This document shows, one piece after another, positions 6,112-62,719 of a DNA stretch of 64,000 nucleotides. This DNA comes from an uncultured Acidobacteriota bacterium (GTDB taxonomy: Bacteria; Acidobacteriota; Vicinamibacteria; Fen-336), in assembly GCA_902826455.1 (NCBI GenBank), contig CADEEV010000005.1, positions 2,306-66,305 of the forward strand, in the 5' to 3' direction. Numbering within the stretch: the first letter of the stretch is position 1; each line of letters starts with the position of its first letter. The position numbers and the translations under genes were made by a program. The notes below the pieces were generated by a model that made no database searches, was not told the DNA's origin, and saw only the letters and a program-made list of their open reading frames with translations.

Positions 6112-6828
6112 TCAGGACTCGAGGGAGCGGTAGAGAGCGATCATCTCGGCCGGCTTTCCCTCGCCCCGCACGGCTCCTTTGTGGAGCACCACGAGCCGGT
6201 CGCACAGTCCCTCGAGCAGCGCCATCTCGTGGCTCACGAAGAGCGCCGTGTCTCCCCTGTCGCGCCGGCGTCGGAGCTCCGCGACGCAGCGCTCGCGGAA
6301 CGCCTCGTCGCCGACGGCCAGCGCCTCGTCGATCAGGAGCACCGGTGCCTCGGAGCGCAAGGCGACGCCGAAGGCGAGACGCATCCGCATGCCGGTCGAC
6401 AGGTTCTCGAGATGGGCGTCCGCGAAGCGCTCGAGGCCGGCCGCGGCCACGATCGCGTCGGCGTCGGCCAGCAGCGTGCGCCGCGGGATGCCGAGGACGA
6501 CGCCGTAGAGCAGCACGTTGTCGAGGACGCTCAGGGTGCCGTGGAAGCCGACGCCCAGCTCGAGGATCGGAGCCATGCGGCCCGTGACGCGGACCGTGCC
6601 TTCGCTCGGCGGGTAGATGCCGGCGACGACCCGGATCAGCGTCGACTTGCCGGAGCCATTGCGGCCCAGCAACCCGACGAACTCGCCGCTCGCCACGCGC
6701 AGCGAGACGTCCTTGAGGGCGTGGAACGTCTCGTAGGTGTAGCGCCCCTCCGCGAGCCAGCGCCCGAGGCTGCGGCGGCGCTGGTGCGGCACCCGGAACA
6801 CCTTCGAGACGCCGGCGACCTCGATCAC
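6112..6828 (-). CDS. ABC transporter ATP-binding protein (Wzt/TagH/KpsT-like, nucleotide-binding domain only)
   Basis: Walker A GRNGSGKST, ABC signature LSTGMRMRL, Walker B VLLIDE. The GTG start overlaps the permease stop (GTGA). Track ORF 6112..7155 is over-extended. Confidence 0.85.
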   Translation of the reverse strand: MIEVAGVSKVFRVPHQRRRSLGRWLAEGRYTYETFHALKDVSLRVASGEFVGLLGRNGSGKSTLIRVVAGIYPPSEGTVRVTGRMAPILELGVGFHGTLSVLDNVLLYGVVLGIPRRTLLADADAIVAAAGLERFADAHLENLSTGMRMRLAFGVALRSEAPVLLIDEALAVGDEAFRERCVAELRRRRDRGDTALFVSHEMALLEGLCDRLVVLHKGAVRGEGKPAEMIALYRSLES

Positions 6829-7590
6829 AGCGCCTCGGGGATGCTCGGCTGCCGCCTGACGAACATGTAGAGACCCAGGGCGAACACGCCCGCGCAGAAA
6901 AGCACCGTGAGCGCCATGAAGCGCGTGGCCGGGAAGAACTGCGAGGTCAGGAACCAGCGGATCAGGTAGATGCAGCGGGCGATCGGGTTCAGATACAGCA
7001 CCTCGGCCAGCGCCTCGGACTCCACGGGGTACACGATCGGGGTCATCCAGAACAACGCCTGGAGCGCCGTGTGCCACATAAGGCCCATGTCGCGGAAGTG
7101 CACGTAGAACAAGGCCACGAAGAAGCCGATGCCGGAGGCGAGCAGCGCCAGGCACACGATCGGCAGGATCGCGAAGGGCGACAGGTGCGAGAGCGAGCCG
7201 CGCAGGGCCAGCACGATCACGAGCAGCACGGTGTTGATCGCGAGGGTGATGAGGGTCGCGATCATGCCCGACGCGACCACGACCACCGCCGGCAACGGAA
7301 CGGCCCGGAGCACGCCCGCCTTGCGTGTGAGGGCGTTCAGCCCCGAGAAGGTGCAGTCCTGGAAGAACGCCCAGAACACGACGCCGACGAGCACGTACGT
7401 CTCGTAGCCGCGCCCCCGGACGCCCAGGATGTGGCGGAACACAGTCACGTAGATCACGAGCATGACGACCGGGCTCAGGAGCCCCCAGGCGTAGCCCAGG
7501 ATCGAGTCGTTGTACTTCAGGCGGAAGTCGCTGATCGCGACCTCGCGCACGATGTCGAAGAGCTGCGCGCGGTCACGCCAGGGATGCATA
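6825..7590 (-). CDS. ABC-2 type transporter permease (Wzm-like)
   Basis: Six hydrophobic segments typical of ABC-2 family membrane proteins. ATG start at 7590 (MHPWRDRAQLFDIV...). The upstream part of track ORF 6825..7811 is Arg/Ser-rich junk. Confidence 0.8.
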
Positions 7591-8712
7591 CAGGGTCTCC
7601 ATGGCGCGGGTGTACTGCGGCCGATCGTATCGCATCGCGGCGCGGGCCCGGCCGGCAGCCGCCAGGCGTGCGCGCAGATCCGGGTCCTCGAGAAGGCGCA
7701 CGACCGCCGCCGCGAGGGATGCCGGGTCGCCGGTGCGGAAGTGCAGCCCCGAAGCGCCGTCCTCGACGATCTCGGCGGGACCGCCGGAGTCGGAGACGAC
7801 GACCGCGACACCCAGGGCCATCGCCTCGACGACCACGAGCCCGAAGGGCTCCCGAACGGAGGGGCACACGACGACGTCGCACGCCGCCATCACGGCGGCC
7901 ACGTCGGGCACGAAGCCGGTGACGCGCACGGCGCCCTCGAGGCCAAGCGTCTTTCGCAGCGCCAGCACCCGGTCGCGAAGACGCCCCACGTGAGGCAGCA
8001 CGGCCGCGTTGAGGGCTCCGCCCACGATCGCGAGCTCGGCGTCGGGCCGGCGCGCGCGCACCTGCTGCGCCGCGCGGAGGAACGTGTCGTGGCCCTTCAT
8101 CGTGTCGAAGCGGGCGAACATGGCGACCAGGGGCGCACCGCTCGCGACCTGGAGCTGTTCCCGAACCGCGGCGCGCTCCGTCGCGGGCTCGGGCGCCGCG
8201 ATGCCCACGGGCACGACGCTGCAGCGTGGAAGGATCTCGGGGGCCGTGCGGGAGAGCTCCTGGCGCTGCGCCTCGGAGAAGACGACGATGCGGTCGACCC
8301 GCCGGGCGAGCCAGCGGAAGAGGGCGCGCCGCGCGGCGCCGCCGGCGTAGTTCGCCTGGTATAGCAGACGCACGCTCTCGGGCAGGGTCAGGCCGAGGAT
8401 CAGGCCGAGCACGTCGCCCGTCTGGAGCACGCGAACCTGACGCGCCGCGGCGAGCTCGCGGAGCTCGCGCGCGGCTCGCGCGGCCTGCGAGATCACCCAC
8501 GGCAGCGTGAGGTTCCACAGCGACAGGGCCGGAAACGGGATGACGCGGCACTCGACTCCCGCCTCGCGCAGGCGGGCGACGAGGGGCCCGTCGCTCGCGA
8601 CCACCACCAGCGGCGGGAAGCGGGACCGGTCGAGGCCGGCGAGCAGGTGCAGCAGGGCGTTCTCCGCCCCGCCCATCTCCGCGTAGAGGTGGAGGTAGAG
8701 GACGGGCGTCAA
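7573..8712 (-). CDS. Glycosyltransferase family 1 (GT4-like)
   Basis: N-terminus YLHLYAEMGGAENALL and C-terminal GT1 motifs (FVPDVAAVMAACDVVVCPSVREPFGLVVVEAMALGVAVV). The TTG start overlaps the upstream gene's stop (TTGA). Confidence 0.8.
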   Translation of the reverse strand: MTPVLYLHLYAEMGGAENALLHLLAGLDRSRFPPLVVVASDGPLVARLREAGVECRVIPFPALSLWNLTLPWVISQAARAARELRELAAARQVRVLQTGDVLGLILGLTLPESVRLLYQANYAGGAARRALFRWLARRVDRIVVFSEAQRQELSRTAPEILPRCSVVPVGIAAPEPATERAAVREQLQVASGAPLVAMFARFDTMKGHDTFLRAAQQVRARRPDAELAIVGGALNAAVLPHVGRLRDRVLALRKTLGLEGAVRVTGFVPDVAAVMAACDVVVCPSVREPFGLVVVEAMALGVAVVVSDSGGPAEIVEDGASGLHFRTGDPASLAAAVVRLLEDPDLRARLAAAGRARAAMRYDRPQYTRAMETLYASLA

Positions 8713-11222
8713 GCCGAAAGCGCGGCGAGACGCGCCTCGATGCGGGCCGCGAGCTCCCCGATCGCGGGCTCTTCGAACAGCCCCTTGTGGCCGGCTTCGA
8801 CCGTGGCGACGTCGACGCCCCCGGACGTGAGCCGGCGCAGCGCGTGCTCGGCCTCGAGAGCCGGATCGCGCGAGCCGGCCCCCGCGAAGAAGAGCGCGAG
8901 CGGCGCGCGGACCCGGCCGGGTCGATAGCGGCGCAGCGCGAGCCGATGAGCCCGTACCACGGCGGGCTCGCGTGCCGGGAGCGGCGGACCCGGCTCGCGG
9001 CCGCGCAGGCGGTCCCACGCCGCCCGGATCGCGACCCGGGCCCGGTCCCCGACGTGACGCCGCGCGCCCAGGGGCAGCGGCGGCGGATCCAGGAGCACCA
9101 GGAGCTCGACGCCCTCGCCGCTCGCCTCGAGCTGGGTGGCCATTTCCATCGCGACCGCGGCGCCCATGCAGAAGCCGCCGAGGCGGTAGGGTCCATGAGG
9201 CTGGCGGCCCTTGACCGCCGCCACGTAGTGGGCGGCGATCGCGGGGATCTCCGCGAGCGGTGGATCCACTCCGTCGAAGCCCGGCGCCTGGAGGCCGAAG
9301 AAGGGCCGGCCCTCCAGGTGAGACGCGAGCCTGGCGAAGAACAGCACACCGCCGCCGAGGGCGTGCACGAAGAACAGCGGCGCGCCCGCGCCCGTCGCCC
9401 GGAACGGGACGAGCGGCCCCCAGGCCGTTCCGCCGTAGCCCGCGAAGCGGGCCGCGAGCGCGCGGGGCGAGGGCGCCTCGAAGAGCACGCTCGGCGCGAG
9501 CCGGTTGCCGAGAACCACGTCGAGACGCTGCATCAGGGCGACAGCCGTCAAGGAGTCGCCGCCGAGCTCGAAGAAGTCGTCCTCGGGACCCACGGCGGGG
9601 CGCTCGAGGACCCGCGCGAGCTCGAGGGCGATGACGTGGGCCACGTCGACGTGCGCCTCGCGGGCGCGCTCGGGAGCGGCCGACGACGCTGCGCTCGCGG
9701 GCAGATCGAGCCCGAGGAGCTCGTGGAGGCGCCGGCGCTGGACCTTGCCCGTCGTTCCGCGCGGGATCCGGTCGCGCACGAGGATCCGCGAAGGAACCTT
9801 GAACGGAGCCAGGCGCTGGGCCACGAACGCCCGGAGCTCGGCGGGGTCGACAGCGACTCCGGGCCGTGCCACGACGACGGCCGCGAGATCCTCTCCCAGC
9901 CGGGCATGCGGAACCCCGAACGCGGCCGCGGCAGCGACGGCGGGGTGTGCGAGAAGGGCCTCGTCGACCTCCTGCGGCGACACCTTCTCGCCGCCCCGGT
10001 TGATGCGCTCCCGGAGCCGTCCCGTGATCGTCAGGAAGCCGTCCACGTCGAGGACGCCCTCGTCGCCGGTCCTGAGCCAGTCCCCATGGAAGGCGGCCCG
10101 CGTCGCCTCGGGGTCGCCGTCGTACTCCTTCATCACGCGGTGGCTCCGCACGAGCACTTCACCCGCTCGACCCACGTCGAGCGCCGTGCCCGACTCGTCG
10201 GCGATGCGGATCTCGGCGCCGGCGAAGGCGCGGCCGACCGTGCCGAGCCTCCGCGACTCGGGCTCGCGGCGCGCGCTGGCCACGAGCCCCGCCTCCGTGA
10301 GCGCGTAGCCGTCGAGGACCGGCACGCCGAACACCCTCTCGATGCGCTCGAGCTCGGCGGGCTTGAGGAGCGCCGCCGCCGAGCGGATGAGGCGCAGGCG
10401 GCCGGCACGGATCGCGCGCTCCTGGCCGGCGGCGGCATCGACGATCGCCTGGTGGGCCGTGGGACTGCCTCCGAAGAACGTCGGGCGGGCCGCCTCGAAC
10501 CATTCGAAGAACCGCGCCGGATCGAAGCCCGGCGTCACGAAGACCGGCGCGCGCGACGCCAGCGGATAGACGACGGCGTAGTACAGGCCCGCGAGGTGGA
10601 AGGTGGGCGCGAAGCAGAGGCAGGCGTCGTCCGGGGTCAGGGCCAGCAGCTCGACACCCTCGCTGCCGACCTGGCAGAGCTGGGCGTGGGTGAAGGCGAC
10701 ACGGCGGGACTCGGAGGTGGTTCCGGACGTGTGCAGGAGGACGGCGACGTCGTCCATGGCCGGCGCGCGGAGGAGCGCTTCGGATCCGCGCTCGTCGTCC
10801 GCAAAGGCGAACACGCCGGCGCTCTCGCAGGGGACGATCTCGAGGACGGGAATGGCCCGGGCTCGCGCGGCGGCAGCCGCGGGCACCTCGGCCCCGCCCA
10901 GCACCAGCATCGCGCGGGACCCGAGCCGGGAGAGCAGGCGCGTCGCCTCGTCTTCCGGCGTGCCGGCCGGGATCGGCACGACGACGCAGGCGCACGACGA
11001 GGCCAGGAGGGCGACCGCGGCGTCGGCTCCGTCGGGCAGCGCCAGGACCAGACGGTCGCGCGGCCCCAGGCCCTGAGCCGAGAGACGACGGCGCACCGCG
11101 TTCACGTGATCGAGAAGAGCCCTCCAGGTCGTGGTGGATCTCCCCGGCGCAGCGAACGCAGGCGCGTCCGGGAGCGTGCGGGCCGCCTCTTCCAGCAGCG
11201 CGAGGAGCGTCTCGGCGGGCAT
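8709..11222 (-). CDS. Adenylation (AMP-binding) - peptidyl carrier protein - thioesterase tridomain enzyme (NRPS-like / fatty-acyl-AMP-ligase-like loading-release module)
   Basis: AMP-binding cores (LLHTSGTTSES, GRLRERINRGGEKVSPQEVD, PRGTTGKVQRR). Carrier-protein motif GGDSL. C-terminal alpha/beta thioesterase with GGFCMG (a GxCxG motif, i.e. a Cys nucleophile). Confidence 0.85.
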   Translation of the reverse strand: MPAETLLALLEEAARTLPDAPAFAAPGRSTTTWRALLDHVNAVRRRLSAQGLGPRDRLVLALPDGADAAVALLASSCACVVVPIPAGTPEDEATRLLSRLGSRAMLVLGGAEVPAAAAARARAIPVLEIVPCESAGVFAFADDERGSEALLRAPAMDDVAVLLHTSGTTSESRRVAFTHAQLCQVGSEGVELLALTPDDACLCFAPTFHLAGLYYAVVYPLASRAPVFVTPGFDPARFFEWFEAARPTFFGGSPTAHQAIVDAAAGQERAIRAGRLRLIRSAAALLKPAELERIERVFGVPVLDGYALTEAGLVASARREPESRRLGTVGRAFAGAEIRIADESGTALDVGRAGEVLVRSHRVMKEYDGDPEATRAAFHGDWLRTGDEGVLDVDGFLTITGRLRERINRGGEKVSPQEVDEALLAHPAVAAAAAFGVPHARLGEDLAAVVVARPGVAVDPAELRAFVAQRLAPFKVPSRILVRDRIPRGTTGKVQRRRLHELLGLDLPASAASSAAPERAREAHVDVAHVIALELARVLERPAVGPEDDFFELGGDSLTAVALMQRLDVVLGNRLAPSVLFEAPSPRALAARFAGYGGTAWGPLVPFRATGAGAPLFFVHALGGGVLFFARLASHLEGRPFFGLQAPGFDGVDPPLAEIPAIAAHYVAAVKGRQPHGPYRLGGFCMGAAVAMEMATQLEASGEGVELLVLLDPPPLPLGARRHVGDRARVAIRAAWDRLRGREPGPPLPAREPAVVRAHRLALRRYRPGRVRAPLALFFAGAGSRDPALEAEHALRRLTSGGVDVATVEAGHKGLFEEPAIGELAARIEARLAALSA

Positions 11223-11247
11223 CCGCGCGAGTCTACAATGACCGTGC

Positions 11248-12681
11248 GTGAGCCCGCTCCTGCGACCCGAGCACGTGCAGCATCTCGTGGCGCAGGGCTA
11301 CGGCACGCTCTCCTTCGGCCTGGGCCGCGGTCTCGCCGGGCGTCTCGCGAGCTTGCATCCCGCACTCGAGGGGGAACGGGACTACCAGGCGTGGCTCGAG
11401 TCCCAGGCCAGCCGTCCCGAGACCCGGCAGCCTTCGACCCATCGACCGCTCGTCAGCGTGCTGATGCCGGTGTTCGACGCGCCCGAGCGGTTCCTGCGCG
11501 AGGCGGTCCGATCGCTGCTCGAGCAGTCGTATGAGGAATGGGAGCTGTGTGCGGTGGACGCGGGGCCGGCCGCCTCTCCGGGCGCACGAGCCCTGGCGGA
11601 GCTGGCCCGGGGCGACCGGCGGATCCGCGTGCTGCCCGTGCCCGAGAACCTCGGAATCGCCGGAAACTCCAACGTCGCGCTGCGGGCGGCGCACGGCGCG
11701 TTCGTGGCGACCTTCGACCAGGACGATCGCCTGCACCCCCAGGCTCTCGCCGCGCTCGTCGCGCGCCTCGAGACGCAGCCCGATCTCGACGTCGTCTATT
11801 CGGACATGGACAACATCACGCCGTGGGGCGATCGCTATGCGCCCTTCTTCAAGCCCGACTGGTCGCCCGAGCTGCTGCTCTCGGCCAACTACCTCGCGCA
11901 CTTCAGCTTGATCCGGCGCTCGGCCGTCGAGCACGCCGGCGGCTTCGACACGGCTCTGAACGGAGCCCAGGACTGGGACCTGCTGCTGCGCGTGACCCAC
12001 GCGAACGCTCGCATCGCCCACGTGCCGGAGGTCCTCTACCACTGGCGCGCGTTGCCCACGTCCTGTGCGTCGAGCCTCGACGCCAAGCCCTACGCCCGCG
12101 AGGCCCAACGACGCGCCGTGCAGGCCCAGCTCGACCGGCGCGGCGTGGCGGCCCGCGCCGAGGTCGCGACGGACGGAACCATGCGCCTCTCGGCGCGGGA
12201 CGGGGCCACCGAGGGCCTCGGCGACGTCGTGATCGTCGCCGACCCGCGCCTGGGGCCGCAGCCGGACGAGACATGGCGAGAACTGGCGCTGTGGGCTTCG
12301 GATCCTGCCATCGGCGCGGCCGGAGCCCTGCTGCGCCGGGCGGACGGCCGCATCGAGAGCGCGGGCTACGTCCAGAGCGAGAGCGCCACGCTGTCGCTTT
12401 TCGCGGGCTCGGCCGGAAAGCGCTGGAGCCCGCTGGGCTGGCCTCAGTGGCTCCGCAACGTGACGGAGCCCGTGCCGCTGGCGTTCGCCATGCGGCGCGA
12501 GCTCCACGAACGGCGCGGAGAGCCAGGAGCGCTCGCGGGACTGAGGTGCGTCACGGTGCCGGCGGCCACGATCGCGTGCCCGCCCGGCGTCAGCGTCGAT
12601 CGAGTGAAGCCCGGCGGCGGAGCCGGGCTCGGCTTCAGCCGGAACCTCGACCCGACCTCGCCGGTGCCCCGGCCGCGCTAG
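11248..12681 (+). CDS. Glycosyltransferase family 2 with a C-terminal extension
   Basis: GT-A signature PLVSVLMPVFDAPERFLREAVRSLLEQSY and DxD-type motif FDQDD. Divergent from the A-PCP-TE gene; only 25 bp separate the two start codons. Confidence 0.75.
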   Translation: MSPLLRPEHVQHLVAQGYGTLSFGLGRGLAGRLASLHPALEGERDYQAWLESQASRPETRQPSTHRPLVSVLMPVFDAPERFLREAVRSLLEQSYEEWELCAVDAGPAASPGARALAELARGDRRIRVLPVPENLGIAGNSNVALRAAHGAFVATFDQDDRLHPQALAALVARLETQPDLDVVYSDMDNITPWGDRYAPFFKPDWSPELLLSANYLAHFSLIRRSAVEHAGGFDTALNGAQDWDLLLRVTHANARIAHVPEVLYHWRALPTSCASSLDAKPYAREAQRRAVQAQLDRRGVAARAEVATDGTMRLSARDGATEGLGDVVIVADPRLGPQPDETWRELALWASDPAIGAAGALLRRADGRIESAGYVQSESATLSLFAGSAGKRWSPLGWPQWLRNVTEPVPLAFAMRRELHERRGEPGALAGLRCVTVPAATIACPPGVSVDRVKPGGGAGLGFSRNLDPTSPVPRPR

Positions 12682-13126
12682 TCCTCGATCTGCTGCGCGA
12701 GGTAGTTCGCGAAGCCGAGCTCCTTGATCTGGTGGAGCTGCGCCTCGAGATAGTCGATGTGCTCCTCTTCGCTCGTGAGGATCTCTTCGAGCAGCGCCCG
12801 CGTGCCGTTGTCGCCCTTCTTCGTGGCGAGGGCGATGCCCTCGTTCAGGCGCTTCACGGCGTCGTACTCGAGCTGGAGGTCGACCTCGTGCGGTTGCTCT
12901 TCATGTACGTCTGCATGTTGGGGACGCCGTCCACGTACAGGATGCGGTCCATCACGATCTGGGCGTGCTTCATCTCGCCGATGGATTCCTTGTACGTGTA
13001 GTCGGCGAGGCGCTTGTAGCGCCAGTTCTGGAGCATCCGCGCGTGGATGAAATACTGGTTGATCGCCGTGAGCTCGGCGCACAAGACGTCGTTCAGCACC
13101 TGGATGATCTCGGCGTTGCCCTTCAC
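12678..13126 (-). pseudogene. bfr: Bacterioferritin, disrupted by a frameshift plus an apparent deletion of about 9 codons (or a sequencing error)
   Basis: The N-terminal 72 aa (MKGNAEIIQVLNDVLCAELTAINQYFIHARMLQNWRYKRL...EMKHAQIVMDRILYVDGVPNMQ) match Bfr residues 1-72 and end at a stop at 12854. The C-terminal 77 aa (DVHEEQPHEVDLQLEYDAVKRLNEGI...EEEHIDYLEAQL...) match Bfr residues 82-158 in a different frame that ends at 12678. The junction is near 12893-12913. Confidence 0.7.
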
Positions 13127-13185
13127 CACCACACCTCCCGCGTGAGCGGGATTCTAGTCGGAAAGCGGCGCGAGCCGAAGGGAAA

Positions 13186-13764: not shown

Positions 13765-14286
13765 GTGCTCTCCGTCCGTAGCGGGGCCGTCTGGATCGCT
13801 GGACTCTGGCTGGGCCTGCTGGTGGCCTCTTGGGTGTCGGCCACCTCGAGCTTCCGGGCCGTCGATCGGGTGCTGGGGTCCGAGGCGCCGGCCGAGTTCC
13901 AGAGCCGCCTCTCGGGCGTAGCGCCGACCGAGCGCCGCGTCGTCCTTCGCTATCTGGCCTCGGAGATCAATCGCTGGATGTTCCGGCGCTGGGCTCTCTT
14001 CCAGGTTGTGCTGGCCCTGATCCTCGTGGCCCTCGCATGGAGCGCCGGCGTCTCGGCGCGGATCGTGGCCGCCCTCGCCCTCCTCATCGTCCTCACCCAG
14101 ACGTTCGCCCTCGGTCCCGGCATCGAGGCCTTCGGCCGCTCCCTGGACTTCCTGCCGCGTCCCCTGGCGCCCGACGTGGCCCGGCGCTTCGGCCTGTGGC
14201 ACGGCGGGTTCCTCGTCCTCGATCTCGCGAAGGCCCTGCTGCTGATCTCGTCGGCCTGGCTGCTCGGCCGCCGTTCGCTGCCCTAG
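13765..14286 (+). CDS. Hypothetical integral membrane protein (3-4 TM helices)
   Basis: Hydrophobic helices (AVWIAGLWLGLLVASWVSA; ALFQVVLALILVALAWSAGV...). GTG start. Tightly linked to the downstream GT2 (TAGaGTG). Confidence 0.55.
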   Translation: MLSVRSGAVWIAGLWLGLLVASWVSATSSFRAVDRVLGSEAPAEFQSRLSGVAPTERRVVLRYLASEINRWMFRRWALFQVVLALILVALAWSAGVSARIVAALALLIVLTQTFALGPGIEAFGRSLDFLPRPLAPDVARRFGLWHGGFLVLDLAKALLLISSAWLLGRRSLP

Positions 14287-14287
14287 A

Positions 14288-15280
14288 GTGGCGCCGCTCT
14301 CGATCCTCATCCCGGTCAAGGACGGCGCGGCCTACCTCCGAAAGACGCTCCCCGCCCTGGCGGTCGGCCTCGAGCCCGGCGACGAGGTCCTGGTCAGCGA
14401 CGACGGCTCGAGGGACGACGCCGCAGCGGTCGCCGCCGCTCACGGGGCGCGCTTCCTGCCACATGCGGAGAACACCGGGCCGGCAGGCGCACGCAATCGC
14501 GCAGCGCGAGTCGCCCGCTCTGCGCTGCTGGTCTTCCTCGATGCGGACGTTCGTGTGCACGCCGAGACTCTGCATCGGCTGCGGCACGCCCTCGACGATG
14601 CGTCCCTGGTGGCAGCCTTCGGCTCCTACGACGCGCGACCGGAGGCGGGGGCATGGGTCAGCGTCTACAAGAATCTCGCCCACCACTTCGTCCACCAACG
14701 TTCCGGCGGTGAGGCGTCCACGTTCTGGGCCGGCTGCGGCGTGATTCGCGCGGACGTCTTCCGAGATCTCGGGGGCTTCGACGAAGGCTACCGGAGGCCC
14801 TCGATCGAAGACGTGGAGCTCGGCTACCGGCTGCGCGCGGCCGGCCATCGCATCCGGCTGCTTCCCGAGATCCAGGTCACCCATCTCAAGGAATGGTCGC
14901 TTGGGAGCTGGCTGCGCGCGGACCTCGTCGACCGCGCGATCCCCTGGGCGCGACTCCTGGCCGAAGGTCGCGGCCTGCCGCGGGATCTCAACTTCACGCG
15001 TCGCGACCGGCTCGCCTCGGGTCTCGTGGCGCTCGGGCTCGGCGCCCTCGCCGCCAGTCTCCTCTGGCCGGCGGCGGCGATCGCGGCCGGCGGCGCCTGG
15101 CTCGTGGCCGTGGCCCTCGACGCGCCGTTCCTGCTCTTCTGCGCACGCCACGAATCAGTGGCCTTCGCCCTGGCCGCGGCGGCCTTCCAGCTCCTGCATC
15201 GGGCAGCCGGCCTCGTCGGCCTCGCGATCGGGCTGGTGACGCCGCGGGCGCGGGTTGCCACCGCGGGGCCCTCCACCTAA
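14288..15280 (+). CDS. GT2 glycosyltransferase with C-terminal TM helices (polyprenyl-phosphate sugar transferase-like, GtrB/ArnC-type architecture)
   Basis: LSILIPVKDGAAYLRKTL, VSDDGSRDD and FLDADV motifs, with two C-terminal hydrophobic helices. Confidence 0.8.
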   Translation: MAPLSILIPVKDGAAYLRKTLPALAVGLEPGDEVLVSDDGSRDDAAAVAAAHGARFLPHAENTGPAGARNRAARVARSALLVFLDADVRVHAETLHRLRHALDDASLVAAFGSYDARPEAGAWVSVYKNLAHHFVHQRSGGEASTFWAGCGVIRADVFRDLGGFDEGYRRPSIEDVELGYRLRAAGHRIRLLPEIQVTHLKEWSLGSWLRADLVDRAIPWARLLAEGRGLPRDLNFTRRDRLASGLVALGLGALAASLLWPAAAIAAGGAWLVAVALDAPFLLFCARHESVAFALAAAAFQLLHRAAGLVGLAIGLVTPRARVATAGPST

Positions 15281-60275: not shown

Positions 60276-60656
60276 ATGCAGGGATACCGATGGTGGCTCG
60301 GAGTGCTCGTCCTGGTCCTGGGCGTCTCGCCCGCAGGCGCCCAGGAGGATCCGCATCTGAAGGCTCGCGAGGCGTGGATCTCCCGGCTCACGACCGACCT
60401 CACGCTCACCGCAGAGCAGGTGAAGGGCGTGCGCGCGGTGCTCGCGACGCTCAAGCCCGGCGAGCTCGCGGGCGGCGCCGCTCCCGGCGACAGCGCGGCG
60501 GCCGCCGAACGCCGTGAGCGCTCGAAGCAGGCGATCCAGAAGATCAACGAGCTCCTGACGCCCGAGCAGCAGAAGCTGTGGGCCCAGCTCCGCGAGAAGC
60601 GCAGCCAGGGCCGGCCCCAGCCCTCACCCACCGCGACGCCGGCGCCGCAGGACTAG
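60276..60656 (+). CDS. Periplasmic LTXXQ-motif protein (CpxP/Spy-like)
   Basis: Signal peptide plus LTAEQ / LTPEQ motifs. Confidence 0.6.
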   Translation: MQGYRWWLGVLVLVLGVSPAGAQEDPHLKAREAWISRLTTDLTLTAEQVKGVRAVLATLKPGELAGGAAPGDSAAAAERRERSKQAIQKINELLTPEQQKLWAQLREKRSQGRPQPSPTATPAPQD

Positions 60657-62719
60657 CGCTGAAGCGCATCGGGAAGTACGAGGTCCTCGACCAGCTCGGC
60701 CAGGGGGCGATGGGCACCGTCTACCGGGCGCGCGACCCCATCCTCGATCGCGACGTCGCCCTCAAGACCGTCGCGCCCGAGCTCCTGAGCCACGCCGACA
60801 CCCAGGGCCGCTTCCAGCGCGAGGCCCGGGCGGCCGCGCGCCTGCAGCACCCGAACATCGTCACGATCTACGAGCTCGGCGAGACCGACGGCACGCTGTA
60901 CATCGCCATGGAGCTGCTCGAGGGCCTCGACCTCGCCGAGGCCATGAGCCCCCCGGATCGCCTGCCGCTCGCCCAGAAGCTGCGCATCGTCGTCGACATG
61001 TGCCGCGGCCTCGACTACGCCCACAAGCGCGGCGTGTTCCACCGCGACGTGAAGCCGGCGAACGTGAGGATCCTGAAGGACGGCGCGGTGAAGATCGTCG
61101 ACTTCGGCATCGCGCGCTTCGAGGATTCGACACTGACGAAGACGGGCATGGTGCTGGGCACGCCCAGCTACATGGCTCCCGAGGTGCTGCGCGGCGGCCG
61201 CGTCGACCACCGCGCGGACATGTGGGCCGTGGGCGTCGTGCTCTACGAGCTGCTGCGGGGCCTGCGGCCCTTCGACGCCCCGACCATCGCCGCGCTCGTC
61301 TACAAGATCGTCCACGAGCCGGCCCCGCCCCTCGATACCACGACGCTCGGCGTGCCTGCGAGCGTCGCGGCCATCGTCGACCAGGCCCTCGCCAAGGACC
61401 CGGCGGACCGCTATCGCGACATGGCGGAGATGGCGGACGCGCTGCAGACGGTGCTGGGCCTGACGCCGTCGGGCGAGCGGCCGCTCACGGCCGAGGCGCG
61501 CGCGGAGGCCTACGCCCGGGCCATGGCCGAGGCGCGGCGGCTGTTCGCCGACAGCGACTTCGAGGGCTCGCTCAACGCGGCGCGCCGGGCCCAGGCCCTC
61601 GAGCCCTCGCGACCCGAGATCGCCGCGTTCATGCGCGACCTGGAGGAGCGGCTGCAGGACTCCCCCACGCTGCCGCCCACGCGCGCGACGCCGGCGGCCA
61701 CGGCCTCCCTGGCCGCGACGCGCGAGACGCCGGCCACGCCCGTCTTCGATCGCCTGGCCACCGCCGCGCTCGCGGGCCTGCGCGAGAAGGGCGCCTCGTA
61801 CTTTCGCGAGCTCGCCCTGTTCGGCGAGCCTCCCGCCACGTCGACCGGCATGGTGTCGCCGTCGCGGGAGATGTTCGCGCTCGCGGCCACCGACGGCGGC
61901 ATCCGCCTGTGGGACCTGCGCTCGCGCCTGCGCACCCAGACGCTGCGCACCGAGATGCACCAGCGCACGGGCCACGACGCCGTGTGCCTGTGCCTCGCCT
62001 TCTCCGCCGACGGGCGGCGCCTCGCGTCGGGTCACGTGGACGGCGCGGTCCACCTGTGGGACGTCGAGCGCGGCCAGGAGATCCCGGTGCGCTACCGGCA
62101 CGACGCGCTCGTGGGCGCCGTCGCCTTCTCGCCGGACGGCGTGACCCTCGCCTCGGGCGGCATGGACCAGACGCTCAAGCTCTGGAACCTGCCGGCCGCG
62201 GAGGCCGGCGAATCGCGGCGCGAGATGCACCGCCAGCCCGCGGGCCTCACGGCCCTCGCGTACGTGGGTGGAACCGGGGCGTTCCTCGCCACGGGCCACG
62301 TCAACCGCGCGCTGCGCCTCGTCGACACGCGCACGGGCCGCCTGATCGCGACGCTGCGCGGGCCGGAGGGCCAGGTGAGCCTCCTCGCGGCCTCGCCCGA
62401 CGGGCGACAGCTGGCGGCGGCCAGCCACGACCGCAGCTTGCGACTCTTCGACGTGGAGAGCCGCCAGCAGACGTTCGTGGCCGTGGCACACCGCACGCGC
62501 CCGACGACGTCCCTCGCCTTCTTCCCCGATGGCCGGCACCTGGCGAGCGTCGCCCAGGACAACGCCGTGCAGCTCTGGGACGTCGCGGCCCAGGCGCCGA
62601 TGGCCGTGCTGTGGGGCCAGTCGGGCGAGAGCTTCACCGCCGTCGCCCTGCGCGGCGGCGGCGACCACGTGGCCGCTGCGCTCGCCGACGGTCGCATCCG
62701 ACTCTGGGGGCCCGCATGA
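60578..62719 (+). CDS. Ser/Thr protein kinase fused to a C-terminal WD40 beta-propeller
   Basis: Kinase subdomains (LGQGAMGTVYRA, HRDVKPANVRI, DFGIA, GTPSYMAPE) followed by seven or more WD-like repeats (LASGHVDGAVHLWD...). There is no canonical start between 60578 (GTG, 79-nt overlap with the upstream gene) and the kinase Gly-loop. Confidence 0.85.
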   Translation: MGPAPREAQPGPAPALTHRDAGAAGLALKRIGKYEVLDQLGQGAMGTVYRARDPILDRDVALKTVAPELLSHADTQGRFQREARAAARLQHPNIVTIYELGETDGTLYIAMELLEGLDLAEAMSPPDRLPLAQKLRIVVDMCRGLDYAHKRGVFHRDVKPANVRILKDGAVKIVDFGIARFEDSTLTKTGMVLGTPSYMAPEVLRGGRVDHRADMWAVGVVLYELLRGLRPFDAPTIAALVYKIVHEPAPPLDTTTLGVPASVAAIVDQALAKDPADRYRDMAEMADALQTVLGLTPSGERPLTAEARAEAYARAMAEARRLFADSDFEGSLNAARRAQALEPSRPEIAAFMRDLEERLQDSPTLPPTRATPAATASLAATRETPATPVFDRLATAALAGLREKGASYFRELALFGEPPATSTGMVSPSREMFALAATDGGIRLWDLRSRLRTQTLRTEMHQRTGHDAVCLCLAFSADGRRLASGHVDGAVHLWDVERGQEIPVRYRHDALVGAVAFSPDGVTLASGGMDQTLKLWNLPAAEAGESRREMHRQPAGLTALAYVGGTGAFLATGHVNRALRLVDTRTGRLIATLRGPEGQVSLLAASPDGRQLAAASHDRSLRLFDVESRQQTFVAVAHRTRPTTSLAFFPDGRHLASVAQDNAVQLWDVAAQAPMAVLWGQSGESFTAVALRGGGDHVAAALADGRIRLWGPA

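Follow-up and report, generated by a model that had tools for sequence, protein, structure and literature searches.

We analysed a 64,000-nucleotide stretch of DNA (hereafter, the window) from an uncultured Acidobacteriota bacterium (Vicinamibacteria; Fen-336; GenBank assembly GCA_902826455.1, contig CADEEV010000005.1, positions 2,306–66,305 of the forward strand), focusing on a gene for an enzyme composed of an adenylation (A), a peptidyl carrier protein (PCP) and a thioesterase (TE) domain, the latter with Cys instead of Ser as its presumed nucleophile. The A-PCP-TE gene spans positions 8709–11222 on the minus strand. Its open reading frame (ORF) translates into 837 amino acids, contains the stretch GPYRLGGFCMGAAVAMEMATQL quoted in an earlier, sequence-only reading of this DNA (the original prediction) and is 100% identical to protein P0174 of our protein collection. 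The A domain (residues 1–507; positions 9702–11222, minus strand) includes the Pfam matches AMP-binding (residues 10–367) and AMP-binding_C (418–493), as well as the A10 lysine (Lys493), present without exception in the 44 aligned family members. It is followed by the carrier domain (residues 534–592; positions 9447–9623, minus strand; Pfam PP-binding, E = 2.3e-13), whose phosphopantetheine-bearing Ser557 lies in a GGDS motif (codon at 9552–9554) and is likewise found in all 44 sequences. The type I TE domain (residues 615–830; positions 8733–9380, minus strand) is fused directly C-terminal of the carrier domain. No further catalytic domain was seen by Pfam in this single-module protein, and a search for a transmembrane segment in the enzyme found none.

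The original prediction had described the C-terminal domain as a type I thioesterase with a GxCxG motif at the nucleophile elbow, and both statements hold. The domain matches PF00975 with an E-value of 5e-32 and a score of 112.4 bits (cut-off 26.4), and a Foldseek search of its structural model against the PDB returned as top matches solely TEs of nonribosomal peptide synthetases (NRPSs), polyketide synthases (PKSs) and fatty acid synthases (FASs), with E-values from 1e-19 to 1e-12. The elbow, GGFCMG, comprises residues 682–687 (positions 9162–9179, minus strand), an assignment made from the sequence, alignments, the model and a codon survey. Its Cys685 is encoded by a TGC codon at 9168–9170; the codon and strand had been named correctly, the position (9169–9171) being one base off. 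In phmmer alignments to PDB chains, the counterparts of Cys685 are the nucleophilic Ser of 7CRN (GWSLGS; mutated to Ala in the entry 7DXO) and, in the human FAS TE, the Ser within GYSYGA. His812 (codon CAC at 8787–8789, minus strand), within the sequence AGHKG, aligns to the catalytic His of the FAS TE (EGDHRTLLE), in agreement with the earlier suggestion that the GHKGL stretch near the C-terminus supplies the catalytic His. The acidic member of the triad is Asp712 (codon GAT at 9087–9089, minus strand), located 27 residues after Cys685 and after strand beta6, i.e. at 'position I'.

An AlphaFold2 model of residues 595–837, computed from a 24-sequence alignment (mean pLDDT 89.3; pTM 0.86), reproduces this arrangement. 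Cys685 (residue 91 of the modelled fragment) sits between a strand (85–90) and a helix (92–106), the topology of a classical nucleophile elbow; Asp712 (fragment Asp118) directly follows the strand 111–117, and His812 (fragment His218) directly follows the strand 209–214. Alignment and structure prediction, two of the checks proposed along with the original prediction, thus place Cys685 at the elbow. Among 44 aligned family members, the position of Asp712 is occupied by Asp in 38, Glu in two and Asn in four, and that of His812 by His in 38. From alignment and model, the predicted triad is the canonical Cys685-Asp712-His812, and Cys685 is almost certainly the functional nucleophile of the TE.

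A TGC codon is a single substitution away from the Ser codons TCC and AGC, and an apparently frameshifted bacterioferritin gene in the same window indicates that the assembly may not be error-free. A true Ser could thus have been turned into Cys by sequencing (which the original prediction itself had named as a possible refutation) or by assembly, or the domain could belong to a decayed pseudo-enzyme. However, the GGFCMG motif is identical in the eight closest relatives retrieved by protein search (54–82% identity; separate assemblies), and across 25 independently assembled loci of related A-PCP-TE genes, the aligned codon was TGC in 20, TGT in two and a Ser codon (TCG or TCT) in only three. 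Since Cys recurs in the loci of relatives and the triad, the carrier Ser and the core residues of the A domain are all intact, error or decay is practically excluded. Cys also predominates on a larger scale: of the top 120 full-length homologues, 96 bear a TE, and 79 of these have Cys and 17 have Ser. An exhaustive HMMER search of 1.84 billion protein cluster representatives yielded 31,888 TE matches, and among the best 150 of these, 64 (about 40%) contain at least one Cys-type stretch; the single-TE proteins within this set divide into 43 with Cys and 55 with Ser. Given this predominance in the family and the frequency among the best-matching TEs, Cys685 is an inherited family trait and no peculiarity of the window gene. 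In this large family of stand-alone A-PCP-TE enzymes, Cys is both the ancestral and the usual residue. The notion that Cys-TEs are rare, as put forward in the original prediction, therefore applies to characterised enzymes, in that Cys is described as a "less common" TE nucleophile and few Cys-TEs have been characterised (PMC11298585, PMC6668435, PMC11536411), but neither to the enzyme's own family nor to its nearest TE relatives.

To rank TE relatives of known structure, we used a profile built from PCP-TE relatives of the window protein. The best PDB match was the PCP-TE portion of AB3403 (E = 9.3e-69), followed by Pks13 (E = 5e-45) and, far behind, ObiF1 (E = 2.2e-19) and 8W2D (E = 2e-18). 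AB3403 (ABBFA_003403 of Acinetobacter baumannii; PDB 4ZXH/4ZXI) shares with the window TE both a Cys nucleophile and a triad Asp located after beta6 (PMC11298585). It differs in being a C-A-PCP-TE termination module (C, condensation domain) with an amino-acid-type A domain that works in an NRPS pathway, whereas the window protein lacks a C domain and its A domain resembles acyl-CoA synthetases. By published description, the TE of the bulbiferamide NRPS (BulbE-TE) is similar as well: its triad, Cys961/Asp988/His1097, has the same 27-residue spacing from Cys to Asp, with the Asp after beta6 (PMC11536411). The Cys is needed to acylate a poor N-nucleophile, and its exchange for Ser abolished N-acylation and raised hydrolysis; compared with oxoesters, thioester intermediates are better activated towards aminolysis and about equally so towards hydrolysis (PMC11536411). 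In contrast to the window enzyme, whose acceptor is presumably a separate molecule, BulbE-TE terminates a multimodular NRPS and forms a macrolactam intramolecularly. Cys685, Asp712 at +27 after beta6 and His812 after beta8 thus display the features of a canonical Cys-TE, and by analogy a thioester on Cys685 would be particularly suited to amines or otherwise poor nucleophiles.

The original prediction had linked the Cys to unusual release chemistry such as beta-lactone formation, and this link fails on the position of the acid. In ObiF and SulM, which form beta-lactones and monobactams, respectively, the triad Asp lies in the loop after beta7 and a Gly occupies the canonical site; SulM further has a Gln-Cys-Asn motif (PMC6668435, PMC11298585). 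The window TE has in common with them the Cys nucleophile in a GxCxG elbow, which is what would recommend a role in closing a strained beta-lactone or beta-lactam ring. Yet its Asp712 is canonical and not relocated, its motif reads Phe-Cys-Met, its profile matches to ObiF1 and 8W2D trail far behind that to AB3403, and the module types differ: the protein has no C domain upstream, and hence lacks a C-A module that would supply a beta-hydroxy or beta-amino acid. We consider ring closure of this type very improbable.

While the TE is NRPS-like, the A domain has a different background. Its best match among PDB chains is the oxalate-CoA ligase AtAAE3 (5IE0; E = 5.4e-83 over residues 1–499), with LsOCS (6QJZ; E = 3.1e-78) and yeast Pcs60 (8AFF; E = 3.6e-63), two further oxalate-CoA ligases, close behind. 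FadD13 represents the next family (E = 1.3e-51), acyl-CoA synthetases overall span E-values of 1e-83 to 1e-50, and NRPS A domains appear near 1e-31 (LgrA, E = 1e-31). In NCBIfam, the FadD7 family matches best, but with a score of half its cut-off. Judged by its sequence, the A domain is derived from oxalate-CoA-ligase-like enzymes. These best solved relatives are free-standing and produce a CoA thioester, whereas the A domain of the window enzyme is fused to a PCP and a TE and presumably delivers its acyl group to this PCP.

The putative acyl pocket has nevertheless been altered. In AtAAE3 the oxalate pocket is formed by Val215-His216, Cys288-Ser289, Ala313-Met314, His319 and Lys500, of which Ser289 and His319 contact oxalate and are conserved only in oxalyl-CoA synthetases (PMC8905533). 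The corresponding residues of the window protein are Leu210-Ala211, Ala282-Ala283, Ala307-Leu308, Leu313 (with a one-residue deletion) and Lys493; with His216 replaced by Ala211, Ser289 by Ala283 and His319 by Leu313, the residues that mark an oxalyl-CoA synthetase are missing. The resulting pocket signature, HLAAAALL, is identical in nine of nine members of a subclade that joins the window protein with the eight sequences nearest to it (at least 54% identity). In most of the wider family, by contrast, the signature is of the oxalate type, HIHSSGM(H/Q), and the motifs FH(I/V)HGL, RS(S/C)SA and YGMTEA(A/S)HQM, which hold the counterparts of His216, Ser289 and His319, are kept. The oxalate-contacting Ser and His are thus mostly retained across proteins P0183–P0291 and loci such as L085, L090 and L102, and the architectures in this wider family comprise A alone, A-PCP, A-PCP-TE with Cys, and A-PCP-C. 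With Ala and Leu in place of the residues that bind oxalate, the window enzyme probably takes a less polar acid as its substrate. Several homologues are named oxalate-CoA ligase in JGI annotations; on the basis of the pocket residues, we rejected oxalate as the substrate of the window subclade. The first members of the family probably loaded oxalate, and the subclade subsequently rebuilt the pocket into a larger, apolar one. The ligase-like A domain with its altered pocket had been missed in the original prediction. As for the remainder of the family, the pocket residues suggest that carrier-protein-bound oxalyl units occur in many soil bacteria. A literature search for oxalyl-loading carrier systems returned nothing relevant, and we found no description of carrier-protein-dependent oxalyl transfer in bacteria.

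The A-PCP-TE gene heads a tightly packed set of genes on the minus strand. Immediately downstream lies a gene for a family 4 glycosyltransferase (GT4; positions 7573–8712), whose TTG start codon overlaps the stop codon of the TE by 4 nt (TTGA). Its NCBIfam matches (EpsE, MshA, BshA-like proteins and GlcNAc-PG synthase) all score below cut-off. The next gene (6825–7589, minus strand) encodes a Wzm-type ABC-2 permease (Pfam ABC2_membrane; NCBIfam galactan Wzm/RfbD, E = 5.8e-18), and its ATG falls 17 nt inside the 3′ end of the GT4 gene. In the third gene (6112–6828, minus strand), which encodes a Wzt/TagH-type ABC ATPase (NCBIfam Wzt/RfbE, E = 1.2e-47; TagH, E = 6e-35), the GTG start again overlaps the preceding stop codon by 4 nt (GTGA). 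Though the Wzm, Wzt and TagH matches all stay below the respective equivalog cut-offs, a Wzm/Wzt-type permease and ATPase adjoining glycosyltransferase genes is the constellation expected for ABC-dependent glycan export. On the other side of the A-PCP-TE gene, a divergently transcribed family 2 glycosyltransferase gene (GT2a; Pfam Glycos_transf_2) occupies positions 11248–12681 on the plus strand. The start of the A-PCP-TE gene (11222) and the first possible start of GT2a (11248) are 25 bp apart; as the orthologue at one related locus (L072) aligns only from position 11305, GT2a probably begins further downstream, leaving a shared promoter region of ~80 bp (11223–11304).

This cassette is conserved. 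The order GT2, A-PCP-TE, GT4, Wzm and Wzt recurs in L072 (59% identity of the A-PCP-TE protein) and in L073 and L160 (54%), with GT2a in the same position in all three and, in the latter two, a phosphopantetheinyl transferase (PPTase) gene inserted between the TE and GT4 genes. Relative to L072, the window proteins are 86% (Wzm), 82% (Wzt), 64% (GT4) and 59% (GT2) identical. In L160 three unrelated genes separate Wzt from the citrate synthase gene, so the cassette is kept while its flanks change. Next to the cassette, these loci also carry a trio of xanthine-dehydrogenase-type genes for the 2Fe-2S, molybdopterin and FAD subunits (L072, 4375–8433; L073, 4335–8324; L160, 1305–5327). A molybdopterin subunit gene likewise follows the A-PCP-TE gene in the more distant L076 (10879–13095), and in one A-PCP-TE protein with Cys (P0253; 1,048 amino acids) Pfam places 2Fe-2S (Fer2) domains on the same chain. 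Neither the PPTase nor the xanthine-dehydrogenase-type genes were found when sought in the window by tblastn.

Two further genes on the plus strand of the window are of uncertain membership in the system. One encodes a 173-amino-acid membrane protein (13765–14286; Pfam), the other (14288–15280; Pfam) a GT21-like family 2 glycosyltransferase with C-terminal membrane helices (GT2b). Homologues of GT2b with 51–54% identity are located 0.5–2 kb downstream of A-PCP-TE genes with Cys at two other loci (L077, 12788–13492; L122, 5125–5667), whose A-PCP-TE proteins are only 37–39% identical to the window enzyme. The homologue in L122 is fused to a PMT_2 (GT-C) domain. None of ~135 fetched loci without an A-PCP-TE gene contained a GT2b homologue. 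This pairing of GT2b and PMT_2 with the enzyme suggests that a lipid-linked-sugar pathway is tied to it. PMT_2 genes also lie near A-PCP-TE genes in L076 and L160. At yet another locus (L119, 733–3570) we observed a family A-PCP protein devoid of a TE, followed downstream within ~300 bp by a gene for a Wzt-like ATPase that is 37% identical to the Wzt of the window. In L119, the family is thus paired independently, for a second time, with a Wzt-type exporter. Comparison of the window neighbours with 70 genome-contig loci by tblastn revealed no conserved synteny, since most of those loci hold distant A-domain relatives only.

Based on the domain order, the coupling of the genes and the conservation of the cassette, we tentatively propose, as the best of several readings though with some reserve, that the enzyme acylates a sugar on a glycan or glycolipid intermediate prior to Wzm/Wzt export and thus serves as a self-contained, carrier-dependent acyltransferase. 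The A domain would adenylate a carboxylic acid, probably a less polar one than oxalate, and load it onto the phosphopantetheine arm at Ser557; the acyl group would then pass to Cys685 by thioester exchange, and the acyl-S-Cys685 intermediate would be resolved by a nucleophile other than water. The likeliest acceptor would be a sugar, via a hydroxyl or an amino group, as the enzyme shares its operon with a GT4 and a glycan-type ABC exporter; this sugar might belong to a glycan or glycolipid intermediate that faces the cytoplasm and is built by the GT4 translated alongside, perhaps together with the adjacent GT2s, and the product would leave the cell via the Wzm/Wzt transporter. The observed triad, its conservation, the order of domains, the intact core residues in A and PCP, the overlapping genes and the conserved cassette are thereby joined to an acid, an acceptor and a preference for transfer over hydrolysis that we infer. 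ATP and phosphopantetheine chemistry are cytoplasmic, and together with the absence of a membrane segment from the enzyme this fits acylation before export.

Several features of the wider neighbourhood weigh against this proposal. The subclade loci share flanking housekeeping genes (citrate synthase, H+-PPase), and part of the cassette synteny is therefore mere shared ancestry. An initiating phosphoglycosyl transferase gene was present neither in the cassette nor among the scanned ORFs of the window, though it may be encoded elsewhere, and the cassette contains no deacetylase gene. A literature search gave no acceptor, product or activity for any family member and no paper on such enzymes. Outside the subclade, a Pfam census of 77 neighbour ORFs at 15 further A-PCP-TE loci revealed two GT2 genes and one GT4 gene, the remainder being scattered. 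Individual loci place the gene beside radical-SAM genes (L074), housekeeping genes (L078) or an ATP-grasp gene and a luciferase-like oxygenase gene (L001), and in L002 the A-PCP portion begins a two-module NRPS (A-PCP-C-A-PCP-TE). Other distant members do have sugar-related genes nearby, some beside genes of other kinds: a PPTase gene plus several surrounding GT2, GT4 and GH26 (glycoside hydrolase) genes in L079, a PPTase gene plus sugar-nucleotide genes in L075, a methyltransferase gene together with the GT2b orthologue in L077, a polysaccharide deacetylase gene in L003, and genes for an amine oxidase, the molybdopterin subunit, MMPL and PMT_2 in L076. With three glycosyltransferase ORFs among 77, we rejected a family-wide link to sugars; the link may be specific to the window subclade. 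The transfer-to-sugar role envisaged by the original prediction is accordingly plausible for the window locus, given the gene overlaps with GT4, Wzm and Wzt and the conserved cassette, but it cannot be generalised to the family.

The same diversity of contexts, mostly without glycosyltransferases, would suit an enzyme that hands its acyl group to an acceptor other than a sugar, e.g. a lipid head group, amino acid, polyamine or protein, or else another thiol or carrier protein, with the GT4 subsequently glycosylating the product or the neighbourhood being irrelevant altogether. Sister proteins of the A-PCP and A-PCP-C types and the priming of an NRPS in L002 indicate that the acceptor of the loaded acid depends on the lineage, a Cys-bound intermediate favours amine nucleophiles (PMC11536411), and some relatives of the GT4, albeit at below-cut-off scores, glycosylate small acids or lipids (BshA, MshA, GlcNAc-PG synthase). 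Translational coupling and the conserved GT4/Wzm/Wzt cassette, however, point to an exported product that contains sugar, and the cassette offers no gene for an alternative acceptor pathway. We therefore regard a non-sugar acceptor as rather unlikely, though worth keeping in mind.

An ordinary hydrolase is a further alternative to sugar acylation. Here, the acid would be tailored while bound to the PCP (for instance, hydroxylated or glycosylated) and then set free, with Cys merely standing in for Ser. Hydrolysis is the default reaction of TEs, thioesters and oxoesters are hydrolysed at similar rates (PMC11536411), and the presence of Ser in 17 of the 96 family members implies that the two residues interchange in evolution. 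Against this, the conserved cassette is devoid of a tailoring enzyme such as an oxygenase or halogenase, Cys is strongly preferred (79 versus 17), and activation followed by plain hydrolysis would be a futile cycle. As such a cycle wastes ATP, the acyl group would have to go to a non-water acceptor or be modified on the PCP by a partner. On balance, simple hydrolysis appears improbable.

The enzyme might also join two or more PCP-delivered units, either into an oligo- or polyester from a hydroxy acid, the way iterative TEs do, or by carbon–carbon coupling. Polyhydroxyalkanoate synthases have a GxCxG motif and a Cys-Asp-His triad, and fungal A-T-TE enzymes (T, thiolation domain) catalyse carbon–carbon coupling; among the latter, TdiA and RalA are NRPS-like dimerisers of aryl alpha-keto acids in which the TE carries out the coupling. 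The window enzyme recalls the former by its lipase-box-like GxCxG motif and Cys-Asp-His triad, and TdiA and RalA, compared by description only, by its domain order; it is a single A-PCP-TE module with no other catalytic domain. Yet its A domain is nearest to acyl-CoA synthetases instead of the NRPS alpha-keto-acid type, the closest solved relatives of its TE are release domains of NRPSs, PKSs and FASs, and nothing points to a bifunctional substrate. Unit joining thus seems a decidedly slim prospect.

For carrier-dependent acyl transfer to a hydroxyl group, related or analogous systems are known. The TE of Pks13, which ranked second in the profile search and is likewise a type I TE placed after a carrier domain, moves the mycolate chain to a sugar hydroxyl of trehalose. 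Pks13 differs from the window enzyme by its Ser nucleophile and its PKS module, and only for Pks13 itself have a long chain as substrate and trehalose as acceptor been established. In the Dlt system, DltA loads D-alanine onto the carrier DltC for the esterification of teichoic acids, with DltB and DltD effecting the transfer. A small acid, tricarballylic acid, is similarly adenylated, loaded on a carrier and esterified to hydroxyls of fumonisin by Fum10 and Fum14 (PMC7711896). Both systems resemble the proposed pathway in logic: stand-alone adenylation, carrier loading and esterification of a hydroxyl. Where Fum14 transfers by means of a C domain and the Dlt system via DltB and DltD, the window enzyme would use its fused Cys-TE instead. 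The A-PCP-C variants in its wider family resemble Fum10 plus Fum14. A literature search for A-PCP-TE or Cys-TE systems acting on glycolipids found nothing relevant.

The remaining content of the window appears unconnected. Between positions 12678 and 13331 (minus strand) lies the bacterioferritin gene mentioned above, which is apparently frameshifted: its N-terminal half is encoded in the ORF 12854–13132 and its C-terminal half (EEHIDYLEAQLHQIKELGFANYLAQQIED) in another frame that ends at 12678. The orthologous loci L072 and L073 encode an intact ferritin of 156 amino acids, and the copy in the window is either a pseudogene or the product of an assembly indel error. A Pfam scan of ORFs from 18.9 to 62.7 kb revealed unrelated housekeeping genes only. 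At 60518–62719 (plus strand), an unrelated 733-amino-acid protein combines a Ser/Thr protein kinase with a WD40 beta-propeller. The window contains one tRNA gene and no rRNA gene. Its citrate synthase shares 81% identity with that of a Vicinamibacteria metagenome-assembled genome, a weak pointer to an acidobacterium of this class as the probable host.

The individual parts of this system are of known kinds, namely a type I TE, a Cys-TE with canonical triad, an ANL adenylating enzyme and Wzm/Wzt export. What is new is their combination, that is, an A-PCP unit derived from acyl-CoA synthetases and joined to a Cys-TE, conserved as a family and, in this case, embedded in a glycan-export operon; we found no characterised match. 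It is possible, if on the unlikely side, that the family as a whole represents a widespread class of one-protein 'load and transfer' acylators with an obligatory Cys, descended from oxalate-activating ancestors, in which the parent family transfers oxalyl groups and the subclade decorates glycoconjugates before their export. Under that same joint reading, the subclade enzyme might be likened to Dlt-type glycopolymer acylation moved into the cytoplasm and fused into a single protein.

The characterised Cys-TEs are a handful of enzymes in which the Cys enables difficult acylations; here, the residue is conserved in hundreds of A-PCP-TE proteins from soil bacteria. The interest of the window gene by itself is moderate, and that of the family would be higher if either the transfer chemistry or oxalyl transfer by the parent family proved true. 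For the evolution of substrate choice, the family's oxalate-type pocket set beside the rebuilt one of the subclade offers a ready-made case. If the enzymes do acylate glycans or glycolipids, they would constitute a new ATP-driven, carrier-dependent route for decorating cell-surface polymers, and would provide compact, single-protein acyltransferases for biocatalysis.

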